Source: Rhodothermales bacterium
Lineage (GTDB): Bacteria > Bacteroidota > Rhodothermia > Rhodothermales > JAHQVL01
Assembly: GCA_965263205.1 (NCBI GenBank)
Contig: CBDHHF010000005.1
Coordinates: 4,673 to 68,672 of the forward strand
Reading direction: 5' to 3'
Length of the DNA stretch: 64,000 bases
The position numbers and the translations under genes are program-made. Positions 19,030 to 54,563 of this stretch are shown piece after piece. The notes under the pieces are model-generated. The model did not search any database. It saw only the letters and a program-made list of their open reading frames with translations, and was not told where the DNA came from. Within the stretch, counting starts at the first letter, position 1, and every line of letters begins with the position of its first letter.

Positions 19030-21420
19030 ATGGCTAAGCAGATAGAAATCCCCAAAGGCCGGCTTTACATGGGTGGATCGCCCGAAAAAGGCATGGAAGA
19101 GCCCACCTTCATCAAATCAAGCAACCTCACCACGCATGGCGTGATCGTGGGTATGACGGGCTCTGGCAAAACGGGTCTGGGTATCATTTTACTTGAAGAG
19201 CTTTTACTTTCGGGGCGCCCAACGTTGATCCTGGATCCGAAAGGCGATATGGGCAACTTGCTGCTTACGTTCCCTGAACTTTCGGGTGATGATTTCAAGC
19301 CCTGGGTCAGCGCCTCTGAAGCCAAGAAAGAGGGGATGTCCGTAGAAGACCTGGCCGACAAAACCGCCGGCTTCTGGAAAAAGGGACTTTCTGGATGGGG
19401 CATTACAGAAGAGCGCATTGCTGCATTGCGCGAAAAGGCGGAATTCAGCCTGTATACCCCGGGCTCAACGGCCGGCATCCCGCTCAATATCGTGGGCTCT
19501 TTAAAAGCCCCTGAAAAAGCTTCTCATGTAGAGCTGATGCGGGATGAGATCGAAGGGTATGTGACAAGCTTGCTCGCCCTGGTCGGTGTACAAGGTGATG
19601 CCATCAGCAGTCGAGAGCATATTCTGCTTGCAAATCTTATTGAACACGCCTGGAATAAAGGGATAGACCTCGACCTGCCATCGCTTGTCGGCCAAATCCA
19701 GGATCCGCCACTGCGTAAACTTGGGGTGATCGATATCGACTCGTTCTTCCCCGAGAAAGACCGTCGCAAACTTGCCCTAAAAATCAACGGCCTACTCGCC
19801 TCCCCGTCTTTTGCTACGTGGATGGAAGGGCCGGCGCTTGATATCAATAAGCTGCTGTACACGGAAGACGGCAAACCGAAAGCGGCCATTATGTCTATGG
19901 CGCATCTGTCAGATGAAGAGCGGCAATTTGTGGTTACGCTGGTACTCTCGAAGATGATTACCTGGATGCGCACCCAGCCGGGCTCAGACGACCTGAAAGC
20001 ACTCATTTACATGGATGAGGTATTTGGTTTTGTGCCCCCAACCAAAGCACCGCCAAGTAAAAAACCTATCCTGACCATCCTCAAGCAGGCCCGCGCGTTT
20101 GGGTTGGGTATGGTACTGTCTACACAAAACCCGGTAGATATCGATTACAAGGCCCTCTCCAATACCGGCACCTGGATGATTGGCCGGCTCCAAACAGAAC
20201 GCGACAAAGCCCGCCTCATGGATGGCCTCTCTGCTGCTGATGGTGGCACAGACATCAAAGAAATTGAACGCCTGATCAGCGGCCTCGGCAAGCGGCAGTT
20301 TATGCTGCATTCCACCAAAGGCTCAGGTCCAGAGCTCTTTGGTACGCGTTGGGCAATGTCGTACCTTCGCGGCCCCATGACGCGCGAAGAGATCAGCAAA
20401 ATCACGGCGGATGCGCCAGAGCGCAATTACGAAGCGGAAGCATCAACGCTTGCTGCAACGCCGGCGGCTTCCGCATCCAGCAGCGCGACTTCGGTTATGC
20501 CAGATGTGGCCTCAGGCCGTGCAGCGTATTACCTGCACCCTGCTGCCGACTGGCGTGCAATCAAAGCCATCAAACCAGAGAGCCGCACGTTTGCGCCGGC
20601 TGTTGCTGCGCGTGTCAAACTGCTCTTTGACGATACAAAAGCTGACCTGCGGCATACGGAAGAGTGGGAAGCCGTGATCTATCCCCTCTCTGCAAACTCG
20701 TCTGCCGAGGATGCAGTACCCGTCGACTACGACGACCGCGACATGCGTGCAGATGCCCCCGACGGCGCCAGCTATCAAATGCCGGATGCGCCCATTCATA
20801 CCGCAACGTATTTCAAGAGCCTGGAGAAAGACCTCAAAGCATACCTGTACCGTGAGCGCACCGTTACGGTGTACGCCAATAAACAGCTCAAACTCTACTC
20901 CCGTATTGGAGAATCACGCGAAGAGTTCGAATTACGGTGTCATAAAGCCGCAGAGAACCTCGAAGACGAAGCAGCGGCCAAGCTCCGGACGAAGTACGAA
21001 AAGCGCATCAAGCGCACGTCAGACATGCTAGACAAAGCGGAAGACCGCCTTGAAGAACTCCGTGTAGATCATAGTTCGCGTAAAACAGACGAACTGCTCT
21101 CTGGTGTCGGCTCTGTGCTCGGTATGTTTCTCGGAGGTCGCAAAAGCTCACGCAGTATGGCGGCAGACTTACGCAGGGCATCCTCGAAGCGCAAACAGAC
21201 CCGCACGTCAAGTCAGCGCATGCAATCTGCTTCCAACCGGGTGGAAGAAAAGGCAGAAGAGCTGGAAGACCTGGAAAACGAACTGGCGGATGAGTTACTG
21301 GCACTCGACCTGGAGTGGGAAGAGAAAGCACAGGCCATCGAGGACCTTGAAATTGGCCTCGAGAAGACGGACATCACGGTTGACGAGGTTGTGCTGGTCT
21401 GGGTGCCTGTGAAGGGCTAG
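19030..21420 (+). CDS. HerA/FtsK-like P-loop ATPase (DUF87/DUF853-like) with a C-terminal coiled-coil and basic tail
   Basis: Walker A reads VIVGMTGSGKTGLG and Walker B-like reads ALIYMDEVFGFVPP. VLSTQNPVDIDYKALSNTGTWMIGRLQTERD is also present. The C-terminal ~150 aa are rich in E/K/R heptad-like sequence. Confidence 0.8.
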   Translation: MAKQIEIPKGRLYMGGSPEKGMEEPTFIKSSNLTTHGVIVGMTGSGKTGLGIILLEELLLSGRPTLILDPKGDMGNLLLTFPELSGDDFKPWVSASEAKKEGMSVEDLADKTAGFWKKGLSGWGITEERIAALREKAEFSLYTPGSTAGIPLNIVGSLKAPEKASHVELMRDEIEGYVTSLLALVGVQGDAISSREHILLANLIEHAWNKGIDLDLPSLVGQIQDPPLRKLGVIDIDSFFPEKDRRKLALKINGLLASPSFATWMEGPALDINKLLYTEDGKPKAAIMSMAHLSDEERQFVVTLVLSKMITWMRTQPGSDDLKALIYMDEVFGFVPPTKAPPSKKPILTILKQARAFGLGMVLSTQNPVDIDYKALSNTGTWMIGRLQTERDKARLMDGLSAADGGTDIKEIERLISGLGKRQFMLHSTKGSGPELFGTRWAMSYLRGPMTREEISKITADAPERNYEAEASTLAATPAASASSSATSVMPDVASGRAAYYLHPAADWRAIKAIKPESRTFAPAVAARVKLLFDDTKADLRHTEEWEAVIYPLSANSSAEDAVPVDYDDRDMRADAPDGASYQMPDAPIHTATYFKSLEKDLKAYLYRERTVTVYANKQLKLYSRIGESREEFELRCHKAAENLEDEAAAKLRTKYEKRIKRTSDMLDKAEDRLEELRVDHSSRKTDELLSGVGSVLGMFLGGRKSSRSMAADLRRASSKRKQTRTSSQRMQSASNRVEEKAEELEDLENELADELLALDLEWEEKAQAIEDLEIGLEKTDITVDEVVLVWVPVKG

Positions 21421-21525: not shown

Positions 21526-22713
21526 TTAGTGGATGTGCGCAGACTTTAGCTTTGGATCCATCTCCAGAATAAGCGTACAGAGCCGACGCCAGGTTTTGAG
21601 ATCCTGACTAATCTCACGCTTCAGCTGCTTATACGCAGCACGGAGCTCTTTCCATTCGCTACGATTCTTTTTGCGATCAATCGAGCGGTATTTCTCGAGT
21701 GTGCTTTTTGCGTTTGCGATAGAAACTGTGAGTTTGGCTGAGAGCGTGTCAACAACAGAACTGAACGCTTCTACGTCTACTTCGCGCAACATGGAAAGGT
21801 GATGCGTAAGCAGCTTACGGTCAGCCTGAACAAGCTTTTTCTTGATCATCAACGGATCCGTACGCTTCAAACCGGATGCCAGGCCAAGCTTGCTGAGCGT
21901 CCAGATGAGGTATTTTGTAGGATCGTACTGGTACCAGCGGATGCCATTGCGGTAATCGCTGGCAAACGTGTGATGGTAGTTGTGATACCCTTCACCGCTT
22001 GTGAGGAAAGCGAGAATGAAGTTATTCACCGCAGAATGCTCACTGGAGTACGGCTTGGAGCCCCACATGTGGGCCAGTGAGTTGATAAACCACGTGCAAT
22101 GGTGTCCAAGGAACAGGCGAAGCAAGAAGACAAAGACAAACGATCCAATGTAATCGCCTGTCATCCAGCCAACAAAGAGCACAACAAGGACATTCACCAG
22201 TGTGATCAGCCATCCAAAATGTTTGTGCTGAAAAATCAACAGCTTGTCGTTTTTCAGGTCGCCGAGGAAACGGTCATCAAACGGCTCGCCGTGCTTGAAC
22301 ATCCACAGGAGGTGTGATTGCCAGAAGCCCTGCGGCGTACCATACGGGTCACGCTCACCGTCGATGTAGGTGTGATGTAAGCGATGATCAAAACACCAGC
22401 GCAAGACACTCCCCTGTACTGCAAGGGTACCAAAAAACAGCAAACCCCACTCAACAGGCTTTTTAGCTTTGAAGGTGCGATGTGAATAGTACCGGTGGTA
22501 GCCGGCTGTAATACTAATGGTCGTTGCCAAGAAGAAGAAGGCTGTCCAGCCAATCAGTCCCCAGCTTGGCGTGTTGTAAATTAAATAGAGGGGCAGTCCA
22601 ATAAATAAGGCAACGTGGTAGGTAATGATGAAAATCATAGACACCCAATCCCAGGTGCCTTTTTCCGGTTGTTTGCCTAGTACAGGGTGGGTGCGCGCAT
22701 CTGCGTTCGCCAT
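21526..22713 (-). CDS. Membrane acyl-CoA/acyl-lipid (delta-9 type) fatty-acid desaturase
   Basis: The three His boxes are HRYYSHRTF, HRLHHTYIDGERDPY and GEGYHNYHHTFASDYRNG. The start MANADARTHP at 22713 is preferred over the ORF-track start at 22791. Confidence 0.9.
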   Translation of the reverse strand: MANADARTHPVLGKQPEKGTWDWVSMIFIITYHVALFIGLPLYLIYNTPSWGLIGWTAFFFLATTISITAGYHRYYSHRTFKAKKPVEWGLLFFGTLAVQGSVLRWCFDHRLHHTYIDGERDPYGTPQGFWQSHLLWMFKHGEPFDDRFLGDLKNDKLLIFQHKHFGWLITLVNVLVVLFVGWMTGDYIGSFVFVFLLRLFLGHHCTWFINSLAHMWGSKPYSSEHSAVNNFILAFLTSGEGYHNYHHTFASDYRNGIRWYQYDPTKYLIWTLSKLGLASGLKRTDPLMIKKKLVQADRKLLTHHLSMLREVDVEAFSSVVDTLSAKLTVSIANAKSTLEKYRSIDRKKNRSEWKELRAAYKQLKREISQDLKTWRRLCTLILEMDPKLKSAHIH

Positions 22714-22904
22714 TCTTTCACTCCCAAGTTTATGTGATACCAGGTGTATTGAGGGTTTGTGCAATATAAACACATAAGATCGGAAGTTCATTACAGCTCT
22801 ACAAGCTTCAAGATCCTTATTTGGATTAAATCTCGACTAATTACGCCGTTAAGTTGCACGATTTAGGATTGCCGCCACCAATAACAGGCTGCATATACTA
22901 ATAA

Positions 22905-22989: not shown

Positions 22990-24303
22990 TCAGGGCATGA
23001 GTAACAATTGCGCTTCTTTAGCTGCTGACGGGCTTTCGATATGCAAATTGGCATCAAGTGCTGCGTTCAGATACAGCGCGGCCATTTGCTGATCGCCGGC
23101 ATCTTTGTAGATCTGTGCAGCCCGGTAATGCACCATGGCATCTCCCGTATTTAAACGCATGGCTTGTTCGATGTATGGAATAGCAGCCGGAGAGTCGCCA
23201 TTTTTGTGGAGCGCCCAGGCAAAGGTCTCCAATGCATGCAAATGGTTGGGCCGACGCTCGTATTCTAGCCGAGCCAGATGTAGTACCCGACCCAGCTGTT
23301 GCTCTTGATCAGCCAGGAAATCGGCGTATTCCATGCGCACATTCTCCCCCATGGCGTCTGCGTCCTGGTAACTCTTATCGAGTCTCGCTTCCAATTCTCG
23401 CACTTCATCTTCCTGCCCCAGTGCAAGGTGGACCTCCACCAGGCCTTCGAGGAATTCATCAGCCGGCACAAAAGCATAAGCCTCTTCAAAGCCGCGCTTG
23501 GCCGATGTCAGTTCACCACGCTGCAGTGCTACCTGCGCAAGTCCACCCAAAGCATACGCGTAATACGGGGTTTCGTCTAGAATGCCGTCAAATATCATCT
23601 CCGCGCTTTCAAGGTCGTCATTGCCAAGGTAGAGCAGTCCCAACTGGTACAGTGCCCAGGAGCGGTCCTCTTCGCCGGTTACGCCGGCTTCAGCAGCCAG
23701 CTTCATGGCCTCGATAGCACCATCGGTATCACCGTGCAGCTCGCGCAAATACGCAGCACGTGAGTAGGAAGAAATACCAGGGCGCAACGCGATCATCTCG
23801 TCACAGGCCACAACAGCTTCTTCATAAGCACCAAGCTCGACAAGCGCATCCACAAGAATACCATAGACATAAGCGGTGGCTCTACCGTTTGCAATCAACT
23901 GCCGCGTAATGTCGCGCGCCTGTTCAAACTGGTGTAGCGTGTTGTACAGCGAAGCCTGGAGTGTTAGTGCTGCAGCATTGTCGCTATTGCGGGCAAGTAA
24001 GCCGTCGAGCACGTCCTGGGCTTTGGGCAGGTAATAGGCCTCTTGCAGCGACCGCTGGGCTTCCTGTAGATATAATTCGGCAAGTTGAATGCTGCTTTGC
24101 GTATCTGCCGGCTTTTTGCGCAACCGCATTTCGAGTGCGCTGATGGCATCGGTTCGTTTGGTCGTCCAGGCAACGGACGTCACGGGTGTATCGAATGACT
24201 CTGTGTCACGTTGTTGCATGCGCGTGGCAAAGAAGACACCACCAATCACAACAACAAAGAGCAGAAGCGCAACAGCGCGTTGGGCAAGTGATTTTGCGTT
24301 CAT
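22990..24303 (-). CDS. Tetratricopeptide-repeat protein with an N-terminal signal anchor
   Basis: N-terminal AVALLLFVVVIGGVFFA, followed by many 34-residue A/Y/L-rich repeats such as YYAYALGGLAQVALQRGELTSAKRGFEEA. Confidence 0.75.
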   Translation of the reverse strand: MNAKSLAQRAVALLLFVVVIGGVFFATRMQQRDTESFDTPVTSVAWTTKRTDAISALEMRLRKKPADTQSSIQLAELYLQEAQRSLQEAYYLPKAQDVLDGLLARNSDNAAALTLQASLYNTLHQFEQARDITRQLIANGRATAYVYGILVDALVELGAYEEAVVACDEMIALRPGISSYSRAAYLRELHGDTDGAIEAMKLAAEAGVTGEEDRSWALYQLGLLYLGNDDLESAEMIFDGILDETPYYAYALGGLAQVALQRGELTSAKRGFEEAYAFVPADEFLEGLVEVHLALGQEDEVRELEARLDKSYQDADAMGENVRMEYADFLADQEQQLGRVLHLARLEYERRPNHLHALETFAWALHKNGDSPAAIPYIEQAMRLNTGDAMVHYRAAQIYKDAGDQQMAALYLNAALDANLHIESPSAAKEAQLLLMP

Positions 24304-24402
24304 GGGAAGAATAGAAATGGAATGGAAAGTTAAACGGGTAGCCAGAATTCTAAAAAGTTGAGCATCACATCTCAGAATTCAGCTTAAATCAATATCAAAA
24401 TT

Positions 24403-24592
24403 TTAGTGCGATGGACGTCCACCAAATGCGAGGCGTTGTGCGTAGGAAATTTTTATCGAAGCGATTTCTGAACGAAGTTCAGATGGACTTGTGCGCCTGG
24501 CGATAAAAAGCGCGTTTTATTTGGTGGTGCCCTTTTTGGGGTTCGTTTTTTGGGGGCCCTGTTTGGTTTAGGTGAAAAAAATGAACGAACGG
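24403..24592 (-). repeat. Copy A of a ~190-nt structured repeat (inverted relative to copy B)
   Basis: The reverse complement aligns by hand with 30212-30408 at roughly 80% identity, with a few 1-nt indels. Shared blocks are cgttcattt, acagggcccc, aagggcaccaccaaataaaacgcgc, cgcttcgataaaa and cgcatttggtggacgtcc. Confidence 0.8.
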
Positions 24593-24674
24593 TATAGTAT
24601 TGCACCGAAATAAGACTTTAATGTGATCATCCCCTTGACAATAGCCAACAATCGTCTCTGCAGGCTGCCCGGCA

Positions 24675-24722
24675 CCCCGCCGCGTCACTGATTTGGGGGA
24701 TCAGCAGGCGGACGCGACGGGG
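24675..24722 (-). terminator. Strong stem-loop downstream of the DUF4331 gene
   Basis: ccccgccgcgtc pairs with gacgcgacgggg (one mismatch) and encloses an inner ctgat/atcag hairpin. There is no clear U-tract. Confidence 0.4.
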
Positions 24723-24766
24723 CTGGACAGGTGCTTGCAGAATTATTGCTCGCAGTAGACCGGGGT

Positions 24767-26938
24767 TTATTTCACCAGAATGGCCTTCTTCGTCTGCACG
24801 GATTTGCCGGCAGCTTCGATGCGGTAGAAGTAGGTGCCACTGGCAAGCGACGAGGCATTCCACTGGACGGAATGCAATCCGGTCGCATGATCGCCATCTA
24901 CCAGCGTATCGACCATCCGCCCCTGGATGTCGTAAACCCGAATCGCGACATTACCAGGTCGTGAAACCTGATACTCTATCGTTGTGCTCGGATTGAAAGG
25001 GTTCGGATAGTTCTGATTGAGCATAAACGCATCAGGCACCCCTACCCCGATGTTGATGCCCACCGGCTCCATATTCGGATCAGCCGCCGTTAACTGCTTG
25101 ACGTAGTCGTAGCCGTTATGCGGATCAGCCTGGTATGGGAAGCTGGCGCCCAACGGCAGATCGTTCGCCACGGGGCCGGCATTATAGCCGAGTTCAGCCA
25201 GCAGTGCCGGCGACGCGAGATCCGAGTAATCGCCCGCTGTAGCATCATCAAACGGCAGCCCAACAGCAGCGAGCACGAGCCCGCCTACAGCCTGTAGCTC
25301 GATGGTTGTGACATCGTCCTCAAGCCGGCGACCATTTGGGAAACCATCCATGTGCGGAATGGCTTCGAGATCAGCGGTTGTGTTGAACGGATCAGCCACC
25401 AGACCCAATACCGCAGCACGGATCAAGCCCTGCGACGCATAGGTGATAAATTCCGAGGTACCACGCTCCGTCACCGGCGTTGCCATGTTCAGGCGCAGCA
25501 TGTCGCCACCATACAGCACACCTTCTGCATCCTGCGTGATCGGCAGGAAGTTGTGGATGAACGGCTTGCCAGCGCTCAATGGACCACCCGTTTTGCCTGT
25601 AGCCAGCTGGTAAGGAATGGCATTGGGCACCCCGTAGTAGAAAATCGGGAAGACGTCCGAAAGACGCGGCATGCCCGGTGCGGCCAGACCCGGACTCAAT
25701 GGTACAGCAAATGCTGTCCCTGAGAGATCCACGCCGGCTTCAGCCAACTCATACACACCATCTTTGGTATTCCGGAAGTCAAAGCCGGCCACGCCGTCAC
25801 CGTCAACATCGCCGACTGCCGGATACGACATCGACTGGACGCGCAGCGCGCTCAACGCCGGCACAGCGCCGCCAAACTGGCTGTCATCCATGTACAACGC
25901 GAGTTCCGGGTTGGCGAAGTACGGGTAGAACGACTGCTCTTCCACGCTATACGGCGTGACGGCATTCCAGCGGTCTTTTTCACCGATAGGAATCACAGCT
26001 TCGTTAGTAAGCGGCATACCCAACCGAGATACCTGTACCCATGGGCCAGAATACTCAGGCTTCTCCCCTGTTGTTGACAGGGTGCGGATCTGCGGCCGGC
26101 TGGCTGAGGCCCATACCCCGATCACGAAGTCCGGATCAAGGATGCTTTCCGCTTCGCTGACGCTTTTGCCGTCTTTCTGCAGCATGTCGATCGGGATTTT
26201 GAGGGAGATCGTGTGCGTATTGAAGCCGGCTACCGCATCGCGGGCGTAATCCGAATTGGATGGATCAGCGCCGTACGCACTACGTGTTTGACCGAGGTCA
26301 AAAATACCACCAAGATCCACGAAGAACGCATCATCGCGTGGGCCGGCGAAGACCATTTCGCCAGTCGATGCGGTCATGATGGCATTCTCTACGAGTGTCG
26401 CGTAGTCTGTACCCAGGCCGGCACCACCTTCGATCGAACGGGGACCGATGTTATTTGGCGGTACAATGCCATTGTCCAGAATCACGGCAAAGGTCTCACC
26501 GCCATCTGTGCTTTTTTCGAGCGTGTAGGTCGTTTTCAGGTTTTGTTTGCCCAGGCGGATATTGAAGAACGTTGTAGGATCTTCATTCTCCTGCTCAAAC
26601 GTAAACCGGTACGTGATGTCGTCTTTTGCGCTGCCGAGTGGCCCAACAGACGTCTGGTTTTTGATATGGATCTCATACCGAATATTCTCGCCAAACGTAT
26701 GATAATTGGGTCCCCCTTCAGGGACTTCGAGCGGGATGTAATTGGCGATAATAGTTACTGTATTCGGATCGTCTGGTGATCGAAATGCATACAGGTCGGT
26801 ATTATCCGCCAGGGGATCGTTGCTAATGAGTGGTGCTTCACGGTGACTGGAAGCATCCCCCCACTCCGGTCCCACCAGCATACCAATGCCGACGAATACC
26901 AGCAGCAGACAAAATCCGATAACAGATTTGCGTAACAT
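24767..26938 (-). CDS. DUF4331-family secreted protein with a T9SS C-terminal sorting domain
   Basis: The signal peptide is followed by SSHREAPLISNDPLADNTDLYAFRSPDDPNTVTIIANYIPLE, the DUF4331 N-terminal signature. The C-terminus reads NYPNPFNPSTTIEYQVSRPGNVAIRVYDIQGRMV...GTYFYRIEA. Confidence 0.85.
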   Translation of the reverse strand: MLRKSVIGFCLLLVFVGIGMLVGPEWGDASSHREAPLISNDPLADNTDLYAFRSPDDPNTVTIIANYIPLEVPEGGPNYHTFGENIRYEIHIKNQTSVGPLGSAKDDITYRFTFEQENEDPTTFFNIRLGKQNLKTTYTLEKSTDGGETFAVILDNGIVPPNNIGPRSIEGGAGLGTDYATLVENAIMTASTGEMVFAGPRDDAFFVDLGGIFDLGQTRSAYGADPSNSDYARDAVAGFNTHTISLKIPIDMLQKDGKSVSEAESILDPDFVIGVWASASRPQIRTLSTTGEKPEYSGPWVQVSRLGMPLTNEAVIPIGEKDRWNAVTPYSVEEQSFYPYFANPELALYMDDSQFGGAVPALSALRVQSMSYPAVGDVDGDGVAGFDFRNTKDGVYELAEAGVDLSGTAFAVPLSPGLAAPGMPRLSDVFPIFYYGVPNAIPYQLATGKTGGPLSAGKPFIHNFLPITQDAEGVLYGGDMLRLNMATPVTERGTSEFITYASQGLIRAAVLGLVADPFNTTADLEAIPHMDGFPNGRRLEDDVTTIELQAVGGLVLAAVGLPFDDATAGDYSDLASPALLAELGYNAGPVANDLPLGASFPYQADPHNGYDYVKQLTAADPNMEPVGINIGVGVPDAFMLNQNYPNPFNPSTTIEYQVSRPGNVAIRVYDIQGRMVDTLVDGDHATGLHSVQWNASSLASGTYFYRIEAAGKSVQTKKAILVK

Positions 26939-27091
26939 GTGCTACCTCCTTAAAGGTCGTTTGTTAATTGGAAATTTTAACCGACCTGAGGATAGCCTCC
27001 TGTTTTGCTCACGTACCAGACCATTACCTGCTCACCTTTCTGCTCATTTCAGAAAAAAAGCAGCTTTTAGCAGATTTTTTCGGGACAAAAC

Positions 27092-29227
27092 CTACCGCCC
27101 GAGCTCCTTTTGCCACAAGAATTGCGTGAGCTCTGCAAGGGCTGAAGCGAGGTGCCGGCGGAAGGTACTGTACGGCAAACCGAGCAGTTCAGCAGCTTGT
27201 TCTTGAGATGCGGCCGGCCGCAGGTAGGTACGGTCCAACGCTTTAAACGCCTTTGCCTGTTTAGCATTCTGCTGCAGCAATGCAACCCCTTCATCCACCA
27301 ATTCCATCAGCACTTCCACACGTGTTGCATCATCAGCTTTTTCGGAGACATTGTCTGCCACAATGCGGGAAGACAGCAACGGATTGTTTACGAGGCGATC
27401 ACGGCGCGTGAAATTGCGGAAGACTTCTCGAACCGCATCTCCAAATGCCTCCTCGCTTAACACCAGCACCGTGCGTTGTGGGGTGGTATCTTCGGTGCTG
27501 CTAAAGCCACTGCCTGTTTCCCTCGAGGCGAGTACATCCAGCCAGGCCGCCGGCGGCCGGCTCCGCCAATCGTGCCCAAATACGCCAAACGGAATACCAT
27601 TGCGCTCAAAATCGAGCGTTTCCAAATGGTGTAGATCTGCATACCCAAAAACGGACTTCCAGAAGGTTGGACTGGAGATGGGCAGCATGCTAAACGCCAG
27701 GTTCGGCGTGGTGAGATAGTGCTTCACCATATACACGAAGATATGGCTTTGCACCTGCGTGATATTCTGATATGCATCCCGGTCCATCCAAAACCGAAAC
27801 AGGGTAGCCGCTTCACCCGGGCGCAAAGGGGCATTCGTATCCAGATAATCGACGCAGGCTTTTGCCAGATGATCTTTTTTCAGAAAAGCCGGCGCTGCCT
27901 CGTGTAATGCAAGCAGGAGCAGGAAGCCGGCAACCGCACCTTGCTGATCCCGAAAGAGAATTACACGCTCGGGCTGCTCTTGAATCCACATCCGCGCCAA
28001 TGCTGCTGATTCTTCACCCTCGTGCTTCACCACCATCGCTTCGATCTGTTCAAGATCGCGCTCGTAGTATTGGTCTGTTGATATCGCGGCGGATGCGCCT
28101 TGCCATTGCGACTGTAGCTGCAAGAAAAAGGGCCGCACGATGGCGTTGTCGCGATGCAGAAAAATGTAGTCTTTGAGCACGTTGCCCTGCTCGTCTGAGC
28201 CGGCTTCTTTCAACTGCCCATTGTAATAGGCGCGGGCATGCTGATGCAGCATTTTGTGCTGATCGGGATTGCGCCAGCGCAGTTCTGAGCCCATCACCTC
28301 GCGTGCAATGTCGTGCGGAAAAAGTCCGCGCGCACCTGACTCGATAAACGACAAACTGCGAAGCCACTCAAATAACGCGCGTACATCGGTTCGATCCAGC
28401 ATGGTCGCGAGGAGTGGCTCGGTGAGGTTATTCACCAGCACACAAGCTTCAAGGGCCAACCGATGATCCAAACTGGGCGCTTCGCGAACAAACCGATCGA
28501 GCAATACTTTGATAAAATCGGGCTCCAGTTCGCTTTCAAACGATGTGGCCGTAGCATGGGTAAACGACTCAGCAACCAGCGACAAGGCAAGCGGATGTCC
28601 ATGCGTGTAGCTGATAGCCGGCTCCTGGAAGTCCTCGGGCAAGCCAACACGCGAGAGGTATTGCCGGCTTTCATCGGGAGAAAAATTGCGCAGTGCGATG
28701 GGTTTGATGAGTGATCGCCAGCCCGGGTTATCGGTCCAGGTTGGCGAAGGCGGGTAGCGGCCGGCAACTACAATCAACACCGTATCATTTAGCTCCGGAA
28801 AGAACGATGTATACAGCCATTGCTCAAGCGCCAACATGGATTCATACGTATCTAACATCAATACGTGTTTACCGGTGTCGCCAATCCTGACAGTAGGGTC
28901 CTCGTCGGGCCCTATATCCAATTGCTGCCTGATCGCTGAGAGAAAAACAGCGGGATCCGCTTCGATGGTTCGCGTATCCAGATACAGCACCGGCACCGAC
29001 CCGGCCTCGCATACGTGTCGGTATTCGTAGAGTAAAGAAGTCTTGCCGATACCGCCAGGCCCGTAGATATGCAGCAATGCAACATCCTGATTATCATCTG
29101 CAAGTAATGACGCAAACAGCTTCCGCTGTTCACTTCGGCCAACAAAAAGCCGGCGACTCACTTCACGTAATCGATCTGATAATTTTCCTGCCATGGGGTC
29201 GAAAAAGCGCTCCGAAACAGCTCCCAC
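27092..29227 (-). CDS. STAND (NB-ARC-like) P-loop NTPase with a C-terminal sigma-70 region-4/LuxR-like HTH; putative signal-sensing transcription regulator
   Basis: Walker A LLHIYGPGGIGKTSLL, Walker B HVLMLDTYE and the GxP motif YTHGHPLALSLV. The C-terminal HTH is SQEQAAELLGLPYSTFRRHLASALAELTQFL. Confidence 0.8.
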   Translation of the reverse strand: MGAVSERFFDPMAGKLSDRLREVSRRLFVGRSEQRKLFASLLADDNQDVALLHIYGPGGIGKTSLLYEYRHVCEAGSVPVLYLDTRTIEADPAVFLSAIRQQLDIGPDEDPTVRIGDTGKHVLMLDTYESMLALEQWLYTSFFPELNDTVLIVVAGRYPPSPTWTDNPGWRSLIKPIALRNFSPDESRQYLSRVGLPEDFQEPAISYTHGHPLALSLVAESFTHATATSFESELEPDFIKVLLDRFVREAPSLDHRLALEACVLVNNLTEPLLATMLDRTDVRALFEWLRSLSFIESGARGLFPHDIAREVMGSELRWRNPDQHKMLHQHARAYYNGQLKEAGSDEQGNVLKDYIFLHRDNAIVRPFFLQLQSQWQGASAAISTDQYYERDLEQIEAMVVKHEGEESAALARMWIQEQPERVILFRDQQGAVAGFLLLLALHEAAPAFLKKDHLAKACVDYLDTNAPLRPGEAATLFRFWMDRDAYQNITQVQSHIFVYMVKHYLTTPNLAFSMLPISSPTFWKSVFGYADLHHLETLDFERNGIPFGVFGHDWRSRPPAAWLDVLASRETGSGFSSTEDTTPQRTVLVLSEEAFGDAVREVFRNFTRRDRLVNNPLLSSRIVADNVSEKADDATRVEVLMELVDEGVALLQQNAKQAKAFKALDRTYLRPAASQEQAAELLGLPYSTFRRHLASALAELTQFLWQKELGR

Positions 29228-29417
29228 CTATTGACTTGTGAGGCTGCACACTACGTGCTGCGTGGGATTTGCCCGTTGTACGGTGTTATATTCTTCCTAA
29301 GTTCGGAGTTGACAACACCATATTCAATGGCATTACGCGTCAACAGGGCGAGATTCTCCTTCGATAGCCGACACATTTGAATACGGCAACAAAAGGAATA
29401 AGCATTCTTTATATACA

Positions 29418-30077
29418 ATGGACCAATCCAAAGCACTAGCAACCCTCGCGTTTTTACCCCAGGCAGCAGAGACGTTTCAGGACACTTTTTTTCGGACCGC
29501 CATTCATAAAACGGTGCCGGCAGGCAATTTTATTTGTCTGGAGAATAACCAGTGCGGCTTTCTGCCTCTGGTCCTCGCAGGAGAAGCGCGTGTTTACAAA
29601 ATGAGCGATGAAGGGCGCGAATTAACCCTCTACCCAATTCTGCCGGGAGACAGTTGCATTCTGACGGCCTCGTGCATCATGAACGACATCGTTTTCCCGG
29701 CAAATGCTGTGGCCGTGACGGATGTTGAAGCGTTGCTGGTACCGCCACAATATGTACGTAACTGGTTGGCTACGTATCCAGATTGGAGTGCGTATATTTT
29801 CGGTTTACTATCTCGCCGACTCGTCGACGTAATTTCCCTTGTAGAAGAGGTAGCGTTTCAACGTATGGACGTCCGGCTTGCGCGCTACCTTGCCGATGCA
29901 TCAAGCAGCAATGCAGTGATCAAAAAAACACACGAAGCCATTGCAACAGACCTTGGCACGTCCCGCGAAGTTGTGAGCCGGCTCCTGAAAGAGCTCGAAT
30001 ACAAGTCTGTGCTGTCGCTATCTCGCGGCGCCATTACGGTGCTTCAACCTGAATCACTCACCCAACGAGGTGCCTAG
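29418..30077 (+). CDS. Crp/Fnr-family transcriptional regulator (cNMP-binding domain plus HTH)
   Basis: Cyclic-nucleotide-binding fold (GEARVYKMSDEGRELTLYPILPGDSC) plus the C-terminal HTH THEAIATDLGTSREVVSRLLKELE. Confidence 0.9.
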   Translation: MDQSKALATLAFLPQAAETFQDTFFRTAIHKTVPAGNFICLENNQCGFLPLVLAGEARVYKMSDEGRELTLYPILPGDSCILTASCIMNDIVFPANAVAVTDVEALLVPPQYVRNWLATYPDWSAYIFGLLSRRLVDVISLVEEVAFQRMDVRLARYLADASSSNAVIKKTHEAIATDLGTSREVVSRLLKELEYKSVLSLSRGAITVLQPESLTQRGA

Positions 30078-30211
30078 GTATAGGTTGAACGTTGCATATG
30101 CAAGGTCAGGGGTGTTCAGAAAAAATTCTTTATCCAATGTTGGCGCTCATGGCCATTCCAGCAAGAGATCCGCATCTTGTGCAGCAAGGAACTGCTTCCT
30201 GGTGTAGGTTG

Positions 30212-30408
30212 CGTACGTTCATTTCTTTTACCCGAAAACAAAACAGGGCCCCAAAAGAAACGAACCAAAGAAAAGGGCACCACCAAATAAAACGCGCGTT
30301 TTTATCTCCTTTCGCGCAGATCCTCCTGAATTTTATTCAGGAAAACGCTTCGATAAAAGCACCCACCGCACATCGCCACGCATTTGGTGGACGTCCGCGC
30401 ACTAATTT
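30212..30408 (+). repeat. Copy B of the ~190-nt structured repeat
   Basis: See copy A. It contains ccaccaaat (30280-30288) complementary to atttggtgg (30382-30390), enclosing the hairpin cctgaat ttt attcagg (30325-30341). Confidence 0.8.
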
Positions 30409-30539
30409 GCTTAAAAACGAAAGAATCTTGCTAGCTACTATTTTTCTGAACACTCCTGATGCAAGGTAGAAAGTTCTTTTGCTTTATACTATGTGTTATT
30501 CCGCATGCGCTGAAGACGTAATCTCAACATATTGTTTGT

Positions 30540-30926
30540 ATGAAAATCCGAATTGCCGAGCAGTCCATCCGCATCCGTATCAAGCCGGCTGAATTGGAGG
30601 CGTTACATGCAACCGGCTCGCTGCACCAGTCGCTCGCGATGGGTCCCACGCCAGAGCACGTACTAACATTTCGCGTCTTGCGTGATGTTGCGGGAGATCC
30701 CCTGAATGCGACGTATGCGACCAACGAAGTACTACTCATGGTCTCCCCTTCGCTTATAGCTGAAATGCTTGAAACGGAACGTGTAGGCGCAACCACCGAG
30801 CACAAGCTTCAGCCAAGCAGGCTCCTCACCATCTGTTTTGAGAAAGACTTCAAATGCCTCACCCATCGGGAGGAAGACGGCGATGCGTACCCACACCCAG
30901 CGACTAAACCGACTCAAAAAGCGTAA
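30540..30926 (+). CDS. Hypothetical protein (128 aa)
   Basis: The ORF has coding-like composition (MKIRIAEQSIRIRIKPAELEAL...). I could not assign a family with confidence. Confidence 0.5.
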   Translation: MKIRIAEQSIRIRIKPAELEALHATGSLHQSLAMGPTPEHVLTFRVLRDVAGDPLNATYATNEVLLMVSPSLIAEMLETERVGATTEHKLQPSRLLTICFEKDFKCLTHREEDGDAYPHPATKPTQKA

Positions 30927-31378: not shown

Positions 31379-31780
31379 ACACACCCCGCTGATTCTTTAA
31401 CGGGTCAGCGCTCCTCTCAAGAGGGGATTTTTGATAGTGAGATTTCTTTGGCAAGCTTCGCATCTGGTAGCCAACCGTGCGACAAGTGTATAGCCTCTAC
31501 CCCAATCGCACGTCACGAATACCCCTCTTGAGCGGAATGGCTATAGCGTCGGGGTGTGTTTGTGTTTTTGGGTTCTGCCCGGACACACCCCGGCCCAGAC
31601 TTCGTCTGGGCCACCCCTCTCGAGAAGGGATTTTTTAGGGATGATTCTATTTTCAGAGTTCAGATCATCACTCTAAACGCGCCCCCCAATTCCCCCTGGT
31701 AACGCCAAAACAACCACCAATCCAACCCATCCCCTCTCGAGAGGGGACAGCCTGACATAGCCAGGCAGGGGTGTGTCTAC
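31379..31780. repeat. Cluster of four ~50-nt modular REP/BIME-like palindromic units in alternating orientation
   Basis: Units lie at 31379-31426 (-), 31522-31563 (+), 31583-31629 (-) and 31731-31780 (+). Each unit has a CCCCTCTCGAGAGGGG-type palindrome, a hairpin whose sequence differs between copies, and a GGGGTGTGT tail. Confidence 0.7.
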
Positions 31781-32668
31781 GCCGCCCCGAACCGGCCGCG
31801 GATGTACGCCGGCACATCACGCAACCGTAAACTCGTCGTCGACGGCCCGGTCCGAATAAAAAACGCGTCCTGGTCGTCATCCAAAAAATACGCCGGCATC
31901 GATGCAGGCGTGCAGTCTACGCGTAACATTTCTTTCCCGTCGATGTCCTCAATCGCAAACTGAATAAACTGCAAGATGCAGGGCACCTATGCGCTCTTTG
32001 ATCATGTTGGTCACGTGGAGCAGCATTTTATCGCTGTTTGTAAACTTGTCGTTATCCAATCCCAGTATTTCGCCATCATCACCCACACCAATCATCAAAA
32101 TGCCGCCTTCAGAGTTGAGAAATGCACAGATGGTTTTCAAGGCGGCTTTTTCTACGGCGCGATCCTTTTTACCCGTATAAAGATTCATCCGAAACGTCGA
32201 CTTAAACTCTACGTTTTCGGTCTCACCAAAGCGAATCAGCTCTGCCGTTGAGATTTGTGTACGCGAACGGAGGTAATTCGTGATGCGTTTGCTGAGTGCG
32301 CGGGTAATCTTAAGCGCAATTTCCGGTGGGACATAGTCTTTATTAAACAGCCGCGTCCCACAAATTTCGATTGCAGAAGCCGGCCCATCCGCAACAACAA
32401 TCCCTGAGCGAAAATCGCCATTAATCACGCCAATCTCGCCCACCAATTGCCCCGGCCCAAGGGTCTTAAATTCGCCGTACGCGAGTTGTAAAGAGAACTG
32501 ACCAGACGCGATCAGATAGAAGAAGCGAGGCTTTCGCTTGTTATCAAAAACCACCTCGCCATCACTAAAAGTCACACGCTCTACGATGGGCGACAACGCC
32601 GCTAATTCCTCTTGAGATAGTACAGCAAATACGTCGTGCTGCGCCAACACCTGCAACGCTTCAGTCAT
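31777..32668 (-). pseudogene. Fusion of a cNMP-binding domain and an AlbA_2 (Schlafen-like) domain, interrupted by a 1-nt frameshift near 31986
   Basis: ORF 31949..32710 carries a cNMP-binding fold (FFYLIASGQFSLQ...GPGQLVGEIGVINGDFRSGIVVA) and then ETENVEFKSTFRMN...ICAFLNSEGGILMIGVGDDGEILG. The domain continues in another frame in ORF 31777..31986 (LQFIQFAIEDIDGKEMLRVDCTPASMPAYF...FFIRTGPSTTSL). Confidence 0.7.
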
Positions 32669-32718
32669 ACAATCGGGGTAAAGATTCCGAATGCAACTGC
32701 AGTGTCGCATCCTTCACC

Positions 32719-48353: not shown

Positions 48354-48389
48354 GCAAACACATAAATCTTCCAAGATTTATGTGTTTGC
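48354..48389 (+). terminator. Rho-independent terminator
   Basis: gcaaacacataaatctt cc aagatttatgtgtttgc forms a 17-bp perfect stem and is followed by tgtt. Confidence 0.7.
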
Positions 48390-48542
48390 TGTTGCAGGTT
48401 GCAAGTTAAAGGTTGAAAGTTTTTTGCCTCAAGCAACTAATTTGCCTTGTAGACTCAAGCACAACGCTGAAATCTAATTGTTCATACTTCGCTGAAAAGC
48501 TAACACTGCAGACCAACCAATTAATCAACATAAAAGACCAAC

Positions 48543-54513: not shown

Positions 54514-54563
54514 ACCCTCTCGAGAGGGTCGACCGTGATTCATCACGGTCGGGGTGTGTCTAC
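54514..54563 (+). repeat. Fifth copy of the modular REP-like unit
   Basis: accctctcgagagggt, then gaccgtga ttca tcacggtc, then ggggtgtgtctac. It has the same length and module order as 31731-31780, but the middle hairpin has a different sequence. Confidence 0.7.

Follow-up and report, generated by a model that had tools for sequence, protein, structure and literature searches.

A probable family of miniature inverted-repeat transposable elements with a well-conserved core in a STAND-DUF4331-TPR gene cluster of a Rhodothermales bacterium

[quoted passage not shown] In QMITE2 of Coxiella burnetii, the direct repeats measure 7-9 bp, the terminal inverted repeats 23-29 bp and the core 113-145 bp (PMC10969869). 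We analysed a 64-kb stretch of DNA from a Rhodothermales bacterium (contig CBDHHF010000005.1; hereafter the window), in which two inverted repeats of ~190 nt, copies A and B, bracket a segment of 5.6 kb. Each repeat is probably the conserved middle of its own insertion of a small MITE that carries no gene, and a third copy of this element (copy C) was identified in a related metagenome-assembled genome (MAG). The insertions are best explained as members of a new, previously undescribed MITE family with ISAs1-like termini, which is ordinary in kind.

Like QMITE2, and like BrickBuilt of Porphyromonas gingivalis, the element is shorter than 500 bp, contains no transposase gene, and has terminal inverted repeats and target-site duplications that are eroded in older copies. 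It further resembles MITEs in its intergenic position, its AT-richness, its long predicted stem-loop transcript, its spurious open reading frames (ORFs) and its varying presence between relatives. It is unlike the described MITE families in sequence, with no Rfam, plasmid or phage match, and unlike usual MITEs in that its core is far better kept than its terminal repeats and arms, and in that its three known copies all lie in one gene cluster. As a MITE, it would add one more family in a poorly surveyed lineage, the Rhodothermia-like Bacteroidota, which is represented mainly by MAGs. The organism is placed in this lineage by the type IX secretion system (T9SS) domain and by named relatives among Bacteroidota and Rhodothermales MAGs.

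ERIC (IRU) sequences and the CIR elements of Caulobacter and Brucella are also small structured intergenic repeats, kept in sequence across species and differing in position (PMC2229807). Both kinds are transcribed together with the genes beside them, and ERIC sequences have orientation-dependent effects on mRNA stability via RNase E (PMC2229807). The two arms and linker of CIR RNA (PMC2229807) resemble the layout of this element, in which a hairpin (P1) precedes a larger folded domain (P2). ERIC is 127 bp long, has 7-bp terminal inverted repeats and a TA duplication, occurs in tens to hundreds of copies and has no sequence homology to the element described here, which measures 272-352 bp, has 18-bp terminal repeats with CAGGG ends and duplications of 8-9 bp, and is known from three copies.

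ISArsp11, an insertion sequence (IS) of the ISAs1 family, has the inverted repeat CAGGGCTGATGCAAAGTCG and a 10-bp direct repeat (PMC6305408). The first ten bases of the terminal repeat of our element, CAGGGGTGTT, agree with the ISArsp11 repeat at eight of ten positions. The element is like the ISAs1 family in its CAGGG start, in a similar length of its terminal repeats and in direct repeats of 8-10 bp, and unlike IS of that family in that no transposase gene is present in the element or in the window, the two being compared by end features only. We take CAGGG ends and 8-10-bp duplications, as given in ISfinder, to be a rule across the ISAs1 family; other DDE families also produce 9-bp duplications.

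The repeat pair and the insertions that enclose it

A BLASTN search of the window with the reverse complement of 24380-24620 as query matched 30212-30405 to the reverse complement of 24403-24591 with 81.0% identity over 195 nt (E = 2.3e-43), and a separate repeat search of the window recovered the same inverted arms. No further copy of the core was found in the window, either by BLASTN or by an unfiltered covariance-model scan. On the minus strand the gene order is STAND/AAA_16 (27092-29227), DUF4331 with a T9SS sorting tail (24767-26938) and TPR (22990-24303), and on the plus strand DUF7009 (30540-30926) comes after a Crp/Fnr-type regulator (29418-30077). The spacer that holds copy A, 463 nt long, separates DUF4331 from TPR, and the one that holds copy B, 462 nt long, separates Crp from DUF7009, the flanking genes being co-directional both times. 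Both cores are in sense orientation, with 100 nt between the end of core A and the TPR ATG (24303) and 132 nt between the end of core B and the DUF7009 ATG (30540). Thus, the ~80% identity of the original prediction, and its account of outward-facing copies that end ~100-130 nt ahead of start codons, are both confirmed. We infer that the inverted arrangement of A and B is incidental, with both copies in the sense direction of their neighbours and divergent transcription of the two sets of genes.

The original prediction had missed that this homology unit is nested in insertions longer than itself, which have terminal inverted repeats and target-site duplications at their ends. The following features were identified in the window:

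24403-24592, minus strand: conserved core of copy A; scores 215.6 bits with covariance model R1, and is 85.1% identical to core C
30212-30408, plus strand: conserved core of copy B; scores 223 bits with R1; its identity is 82.3% with core A and 84.2% with core C
30107-30458, plus strand: MITE copy B, full-length insertion of 352 bp, with terminal inverted repeats and target-site duplication
30098-30106, plus strand: left target-site duplication of B, ATGCAAGGT, a perfect 9-bp direct repeat abutting the left terminal repeat
30459-30467, plus strand: right target-site duplication of B, ATGCAAGGT, a perfect 9-bp direct repeat abutting the right terminal repeat
30107-30124, plus strand: left terminal inverted repeat of B, CAGGGGTGTTCAGAAAAA, 17/18 against the reverse complement of 30441-30458
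30441-30458, minus strand: right terminal inverted repeat of B, CAGGAGTGTTCAGAAAAA (minus-strand reading), 17/18 against the left repeat
24345-24637, minus strand: MITE copy A, probable full insertion of ~293 bp, with eroded ends and approximate boundaries

The bounds of copy B were recognised by comparing its site with the empty site of a related locus, L002. Alignment of one flank of the copy with the other scored 33, with agreement at 18 of 19 positions of the arms, against 14.6 +/- 2.2 in shuffles, and the terminal repeats of B are the only such pair in the window, in which 0.11 chance matches are expected. With the insertion and one target-site duplication taken away, the spacer at site B would measure 104 nt, compared with 94 nt in L002, 24 nt in L021 and 12 nt in L003. 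In the fold of the whole of copy B (-105.9 kcal/mol), a single long stem is closed by the terminal repeats. The left target-site duplication also belongs to a direct-repeat family found in the repeat search. The three insertions (352 bp in B, 272 bp in C and ~293 bp in A) are intergenic, and a protein-coding reading of them was rejected; they are AT-richer than the genome (41-46% against 52% GC), with 45.5% GC in copy B and 41.3% in copy A, against 52.3% in the window.

The third copy was found in L003 (GCA_039111535.1), a related MAG of which 20 kb were searched, and which has the same five cluster genes as the window, in the same order and orientation. Core C (6939-6762 of L003, minus strand) has the orientation of the genes and is found in the spacer that runs from the STAND stop to the start of DUF4331, within an insertion of 272 bp (6979-6708) that is flanked on both sides by a perfect 8-bp duplication, CATTTTAC (p ~ 0.003). 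Its left end, CTGAGGTATTCTGAAAAG, agrees with the terminal repeat of B at 13 of 18 positions (p = 0.0035 across the flank), and its right end, the position of which is set by the duplication, agrees at 9 of 18 (p = 0.019). After removal of the insertion, site C of L003 measures 156 nt, against 153 nt in the window, where this spacer holds no copy. Copy A appears to be an older member of the family with eroded ends: CAAGGGGATGATCA, at its left, can be aligned with the corresponding ends of B and C, and a candidate degenerate duplication is formed by TGGCTA(TTGT) at 24647-24638 and TGGCTA(CCCG) at 24344-24335.

All three sites are empty in related genomes. Site A is empty in L003, L015, L017, L018, L019 and L020, the spacer measuring 136-137 nt in L003 and L015 against 463 nt in the window; site B is empty in L002, L003, L004 and L021; and no insertion occupies site C in the window, L016, L019 or L020. 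Thus L003 lacks the element at both sites that are occupied in the window, its spacers there being 136 nt (A) and 12 nt (B), and no insertion site is common to both element-carrying genomes. The element was also absent, by BLAST and by covariance model R1, from the covered sites of seven further related loci (L002, L015 and L021, which come from one sample, L016, L017, L018, L019 and L020).

The copies would be short, gene-less derivatives of a DDE-type insertion sequence, which a transposase encoded elsewhere would move in trans, and the CAGGG ends and 8-10-bp duplications point to an ISAs1-like parent. Since the copies lie between co-directional genes, they are probably co-transcribed with them. 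In that case the core of ~190 nt would form a 5' hairpin and a multi-stem domain closed by CCACCAAAU/AUUUGGUGG, and the element may, in the manner of ERIC or Correia elements, change the processing, stability or read-through of the cluster mRNAs. A MITE accounts for the 190-nt inverted repeat without any special mechanism, and the case carries a caution, that paired MITE copies can be misread as the ends of a cassette or as inversion switches.

We searched more widely for relatives of the element. Six-frame translation of the three cores gave no match, to a transposase or any other protein, at E <= 1 among 5.8 billion proteins, BLASTN of the element against plasmids and phages (distant mode) gave no match, and terminal repeats of the B type were absent from the 21 other loci examined. 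A scan of a genome collection with the pattern GGGCACCACCAAATAAAACG returned one chance match of 21 nt in a gammaproteobacterial MAG, and a metagenome scan with the two helix arms returned L005-L008, which have no further similarity by BLAST or covariance model; copy C itself fails both patterns. Scans of viral contigs with three patterns gave chance matches or none. An origin of the IS200/IS605 type (PATE) or of the REP/RAYT type, considered for the sharp core edges and the two hairpins, was rejected, because the hairpins are unlike, the left junction lacks a conserved tetranucleotide, and classical terminal inverted repeats with duplications are present in B and C.

Several observations weigh against a MITE. 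There is no transposase among the genes of the 64-kb window, and no cognate transposase or full-length IS was found. A typical MITE family is dispersed, whereas all three known copies lie in one gene cluster; the ~56 kb of the window outside it contain none, nor do ~125 kb of related loci. The terminal inverted repeats are normally the best-kept part of a MITE; here they are less conserved than the core, and the arms that join them to it are unalignable between copies. This reversed pattern of conservation suggests that the core is more than passive filler. In copy A, neither the terminal repeats nor the duplication is statistically significant alone, and the assignment to ISAs1 was made from end features alone (one example from the literature and the ISfinder family table).

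Conservation and fold of the core

The three cores are 82-85% identical in pairs, and thus as similar as the best-conserved gene of the region, DUF4331. Between the window and L003, fourfold-degenerate sites are 33-50% identical and therefore saturated, most spacers are unalignable, and the nucleotide identity of the genes is 72-76%, or 85% for DUF4331; the corresponding amino-acid identities are 97% in DUF4331, 85% in both STAND and Crp, 81% in TPR and 58% in DUF7009. To judge from these comparisons, the conservation of the core is far above neutral. Immediately beyond the core, the copies have unrelated flanks, so that the homology unit has sharp edges, with CGTWCGTTCATTT at the 5' side and GGACGTCC(N)CGCACTRA at the 3' side. 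Possible causes of this contrast between the core and the terminal repeats and arms are selection at the level of the host, a requirement for the core in the propagation of the family, or a mosaic origin of the arms.

The following elements of a predicted RNA fold were identified in the cores:

30217-30265, plus strand: P1 hairpin in copy B, GUUCAUUUCUUU ... AAAGAAACGAAC; helix 2 of RNAalifold, with 10 pairs
30275-30396, plus strand: domain P2 of copy B, with the closing helix GGGC.CCACCAAAU/AUUUGGUGG..GUCC (minimum-free-energy and consensus folds)
30280-30288 with 30382-30390, plus strand (copy B), and 24527-24519 with 24427-24419, minus strand (copy A): 9-nt pairing CCACCAAAT/ATTTGGTGG

The 9-nt pairing is present in both copies of the window, its arms 91 and 93 nt apart, and forms the closing helix of the minimum-free-energy folds. 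P2 of copy B further contains an inner stem, UUUUAUC/GAUAAAA, and an apical hairpin at 30324-30342, and the apical stem reads CTGAAC/GTTCAG in A and CTGAAT/ATTCAG in B. The long-range complement, for which the original prediction gave a distance of ~95 nt, and the apical stem that it described are therefore both found in the folds. In the RNAalifold consensus of the three copies, P1 is GUUCAUUUYUUU/AAARAAACGAAC, and P2 has the inner stem UUUUAUCG/CGAUAAAA and the apical hairpin.

The closing helix is kept in all three copies, with 38 of 39 cells paired. One pair of P1 is U-A in A and C and C-G in B, which is compensatory, and one pair of the apical hairpin is C-G in A, U-A in B and C.A in C; the 17-nt deletion of copy C lies wholly inside the P1 loop. 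Variable columns make up 14 of the 102 paired positions and 51 of the 97 unpaired ones (Fisher 4e-9), or 29 of 72 unpaired positions when the P1 loop is left out (8e-5). Relative to shuffles, the sense folds of A, B and C have z-scores of -2.9, -4.25 and -1.75, and the antisense folds -0.4, -2.3 and -1.7. The covariation is not significant: of 51 pairs two are compensatory, 96% of cells being paired, and 209 of 500 shuffles did as well, in a test that has no power with three sequences, which are also the ones from which the structure was defined. Thus, the compensatory change that had been predicted is present, with a second one in P1, and the covariation lacks significance. We consider the RNA structure of the core to be no more than plausible. 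Searches against Rfam 15 gave no match in the window at the gathering threshold, and for both copies at E <= 10 the best scores were 14-15 bits, against thresholds of 44-91, in keeping with the earlier statement that no known RNA family is recognisable; ARAGORN found no tRNA or tmRNA.

It is possible, although we hold the view only tentatively, that the ~190-nt core is a functional RNA module (a cis-acting leader, an intercistronic regulator or a small RNA) which is under host selection and has the MITE as its vehicle. This view overlaps with that of a MITE, and on it repeated recruitment would put the genes of the cluster under common post-transcriptional control. The level of core identity across saturated genomes, the divergence of the arms and terminal repeats of the same insertions past alignment, the avoidance of paired positions by substitutions, the two compensatory pairs and the loop-confined deletion all argue for such a module, as do the sense fold, which departs more from shuffles than the antisense fold does, and the sense orientation of all three copies to their flanking genes in one cluster.

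Other results speak against a functional RNA. The covariation is non-significant and the structure was derived from the three sequences on which it was assessed; orthologous genes of six relatives lack the element; the downstream flanks, of 100-200 nt, are unrelated and contain no conserved expression platform; and neither a promoter nor a terminator is conserved within the unit. The conservation of the core could also reflect a slowly evolving master copy or horizontal spread. The core was also compared with orphan cis-regulatory RNA motifs and with riboswitch candidates from comparative genomics. The core is like these in its sharp conservation edges, in a closing helix round a multi-stem junction, in highly conserved unpaired stretches, and in its sense position upstream of several genes in one functional neighbourhood. 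It is unlike them in that it lies inside an insertion with terminal inverted repeats and target-site duplications, is absent at orthologous loci in close relatives, and has no conserved expression platform, no significant covariation and no Rfam family. Of the earlier suggestion of a shared leader, cis-regulatory RNA or small RNA, the sense position ahead of downstream genes holds and the structure is plausible. The suggestion may be right as to function, and it is not the primary identity of the repeats: orthologous genes do without them, their downstream flanks are unrelated, and the covariation is non-significant.

The association with one cluster is in part a matter of ascertainment. The pair in the window was noticed because its copies lie close together, and the copy in L003 is the only unbiased datum, with a probability of roughly p = 0.02-0.2 that varies with copy density. 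We regard as doubtful the stronger proposal, that a structured core kept by selection has been recruited at least three times, in sense, into the spacers of the STAND-DUF4331-TPR / Crp-DUF7009 cluster. What makes the case noteworthy is an interior that was kept while the termini and arms decayed, in three independent sense insertions in one cluster. If this were true genome-wide, one would have a clear case from nature of an RNA or DNA module that was carried by a transposon and exapted for regulation. A mobile element would then wire the genes of the cluster into a shared post-transcriptional circuit, and would offer a handle on an uncharacterised and very widespread cluster of DUF4331 (T9SS-secreted), STAND and TPR genes.

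Explanations at the level of DNA, recombination and protein

It is unlikely that the core acts instead as a regulatory module at the level of DNA, carrying to new genes a promoter or the sites of a Crp/Fnr-type or STAND regulator. A Crp-family regulator is encoded beside copy B, and the core contains palindromes that lack a spacer and are therefore unable to form RNA hairpins (TGGACGTCCA, AAAACGCGCGTTTT, GGGCCC and CGTACG), of which GGGCCC is deleted in copy C. By eye, no palindrome fits the consensus sequences of CRP, FNR or NtcA. The main feature of the core, a complement of 9-13 bp with arms 91-93 nt apart, fits the folding of a single strand and not the binding of a dimeric factor. For a promoter there is a weak sigma-70-like site, CTGAGA-17-TAGAAT (9/12), at 24347-24375 on the minus strand, which is part of copy A's right arm and is directed towards TPR; against this, promoter-like sites are not enriched in a scan for sigma-70 sites and terminators (2 found, 5.8 expected), and neither are TAnnTTTG boxes in the non-coding DNA of this genome. 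A promoter of the Bacteroidota type (TTG...TAnnTTTG) at the 3' edge of the core was also considered; its box occurs 5 times against 4.7 expected, and is absent from copy C. Separately from the core, this sigma-70-like site could act as a promoter that the insertion carries and that reads outward from it.

We consider it very improbable that A and B serve as substrates of homologous recombination, by which the 5.6-kb DUF4331/STAND/Crp segment would be inverted as a phase-variation switch. Occasional RecA-mediated inversion is physically possible, the copies being inverted, ~190 nt long and identical over a longest exact run of 27 nt. The orientation in the window is nevertheless that of every relative, with or without the repeats, and no site-specific recombinase is encoded in the 64 kb, in which transposase, integrase and reverse transcriptase genes are likewise absent. 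A and B are the most diverged pair of cores (82.3%), with no sign of the gene conversion that is expected between active repeats, and an inversion would split TPR from DUF4331 and DUF7009 from Crp, which are adjacent and co-oriented in relatives. The earlier suggestion of inversion is thus left without support.

The reading of the repeat as a gene for a small protein (B/C frame ...KGHHQ...LNFIQENASIK...AFGGRP), in favour of which B (125-aa ORF, 30092-30469) and C (53-aa ORF) are open in one frame across the core, is effectively refuted: copy A has two 1-nt deletions that shift the frame and is yet as conserved as B and C; substitutions between B and C fall 10:6:12 by codon position, with third positions ~80% identical against 33-50% at fourfold sites in the true genes; 12-19% of shuffles would be expected to have an open frame, given how few T and G the sense strand contains; the conserved unit includes no start codon; and the six frames have no match among 5.8 billion proteins, a weak negative, as the 125-aa ORF of the window was itself never called. 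The original view of the repeats as non-coding is accordingly upheld, on stronger evidence than before, namely the frameshifts of A, the codon-position counts and the saturation of the real genes. Finally, the 5.6-kb segment is no cassette or composite transposon with the two repeats as its ends, as L003 has the same genes in place without bracketing repeats, has its own copy between STAND and DUF4331, inside the supposed cassette, and B and C each have their own ends and target-site duplication. By the test set out with the original prediction, namely the same genes in place in a relative without the repeats, the transposase-less cassette is refuted, and what survives of the idea of mobility is that the element is mobile, the mobile unit being each insertion of ~270-350 bp and not the segment between them.

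Neighbouring genes and other small repeats

For the five proteins of the cluster we found no match among the PADLOC defence models, and a literature search on DUF4331 returned nothing. Two further features were identified around the DUF4331 gene. A GC-rich hairpin (CCCCGYCGCG ... CTGAT..ATCAG ... CGCGGYGGGG) lies ~45 nt past the DUF4331 stop, at 24675-24722 on the minus strand of the window, at ~4320-4366 in L003 and at ~2340-2390 in L015. It is kept in the three closest genomes, where G-U wobble on the sense strand preserves the pairing, and, having no U-tract after it, it is probably a 3' stabiliser of the mRNA or an attenuator and not a canonical terminator. A leader of ~110 nt before the DUF4331 start (window ~26939-27046, minus strand; L003 6566-6672; L015-L020) is kept in eight genomes, with DUF4331 identities as low as 84%. 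Within it are GTGAGCA..(~22 nt)..GTGAGC, a direct repeat, and a strong Shine-Dalgarno sequence, AAGGAGG. The leader resembles an operator or a promoter, possibly one for the STAND protein encoded next to it. The TAnnTTTG -7 box is not enriched in non-coding DNA (5 against 4.7 expected), and DUF4331 has a strong Shine-Dalgarno sequence; the expression signals of this lineage seem to differ from those of classical Bacteroidia.

The genes on either side of the cluster were also compared. A HerA/DUF87-like ATPase of 796 aa (window 19030-21420) flanks it and gives weak matches to the HerA and mad8 models of PADLOC, and a protein with cyclic-nucleotide (cNMP)-binding and Schlafen/AlbA_2 regions (window 31949-32710) gives weak matches to PADLOC TIR-effector models over its cNMP-binding region; both are conserved in relatives. 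In L003, a HEPN/nucleotidyltransferase (MNT) toxin-antitoxin pair (1045-2615) replaces the fatty-acid desaturase gene found at 21526-22845 of the window, and L003 keeps a 252-nt remnant of the 5' end of the desaturase gene and its upstream region, at 87% identity.

Two other small repeats, apart from the MITE, were identified. The 16-nt palindrome CCCCTCTCGAGAGGGG occurs at 31411-31426, 31522-31536, 31614-31629, 31731-31746 and 54514-54529, that is, four times in the spacer downstream of a YgaP-like gene and once elsewhere, and is REP-like and unrelated to the MITE. A pattern search gave four matches against 0.06 expected, the copy at 31522 coming from the repeat search only. Finally, a terminator-like hairpin, GCAAACAC...GTGTTTGC, followed by GGTTGCAnGTTAAAGGnTGAAnGTTTT...CTAnTTT, was found at 48354-48445 of the window, after DsbD, and at 15675-15770 of L003, in the spacer between MlaE and a methyltransferase gene. 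The two are 79% identical at non-orthologous sites, and so represent another small element, one that was moved or copied from one spacer to another.

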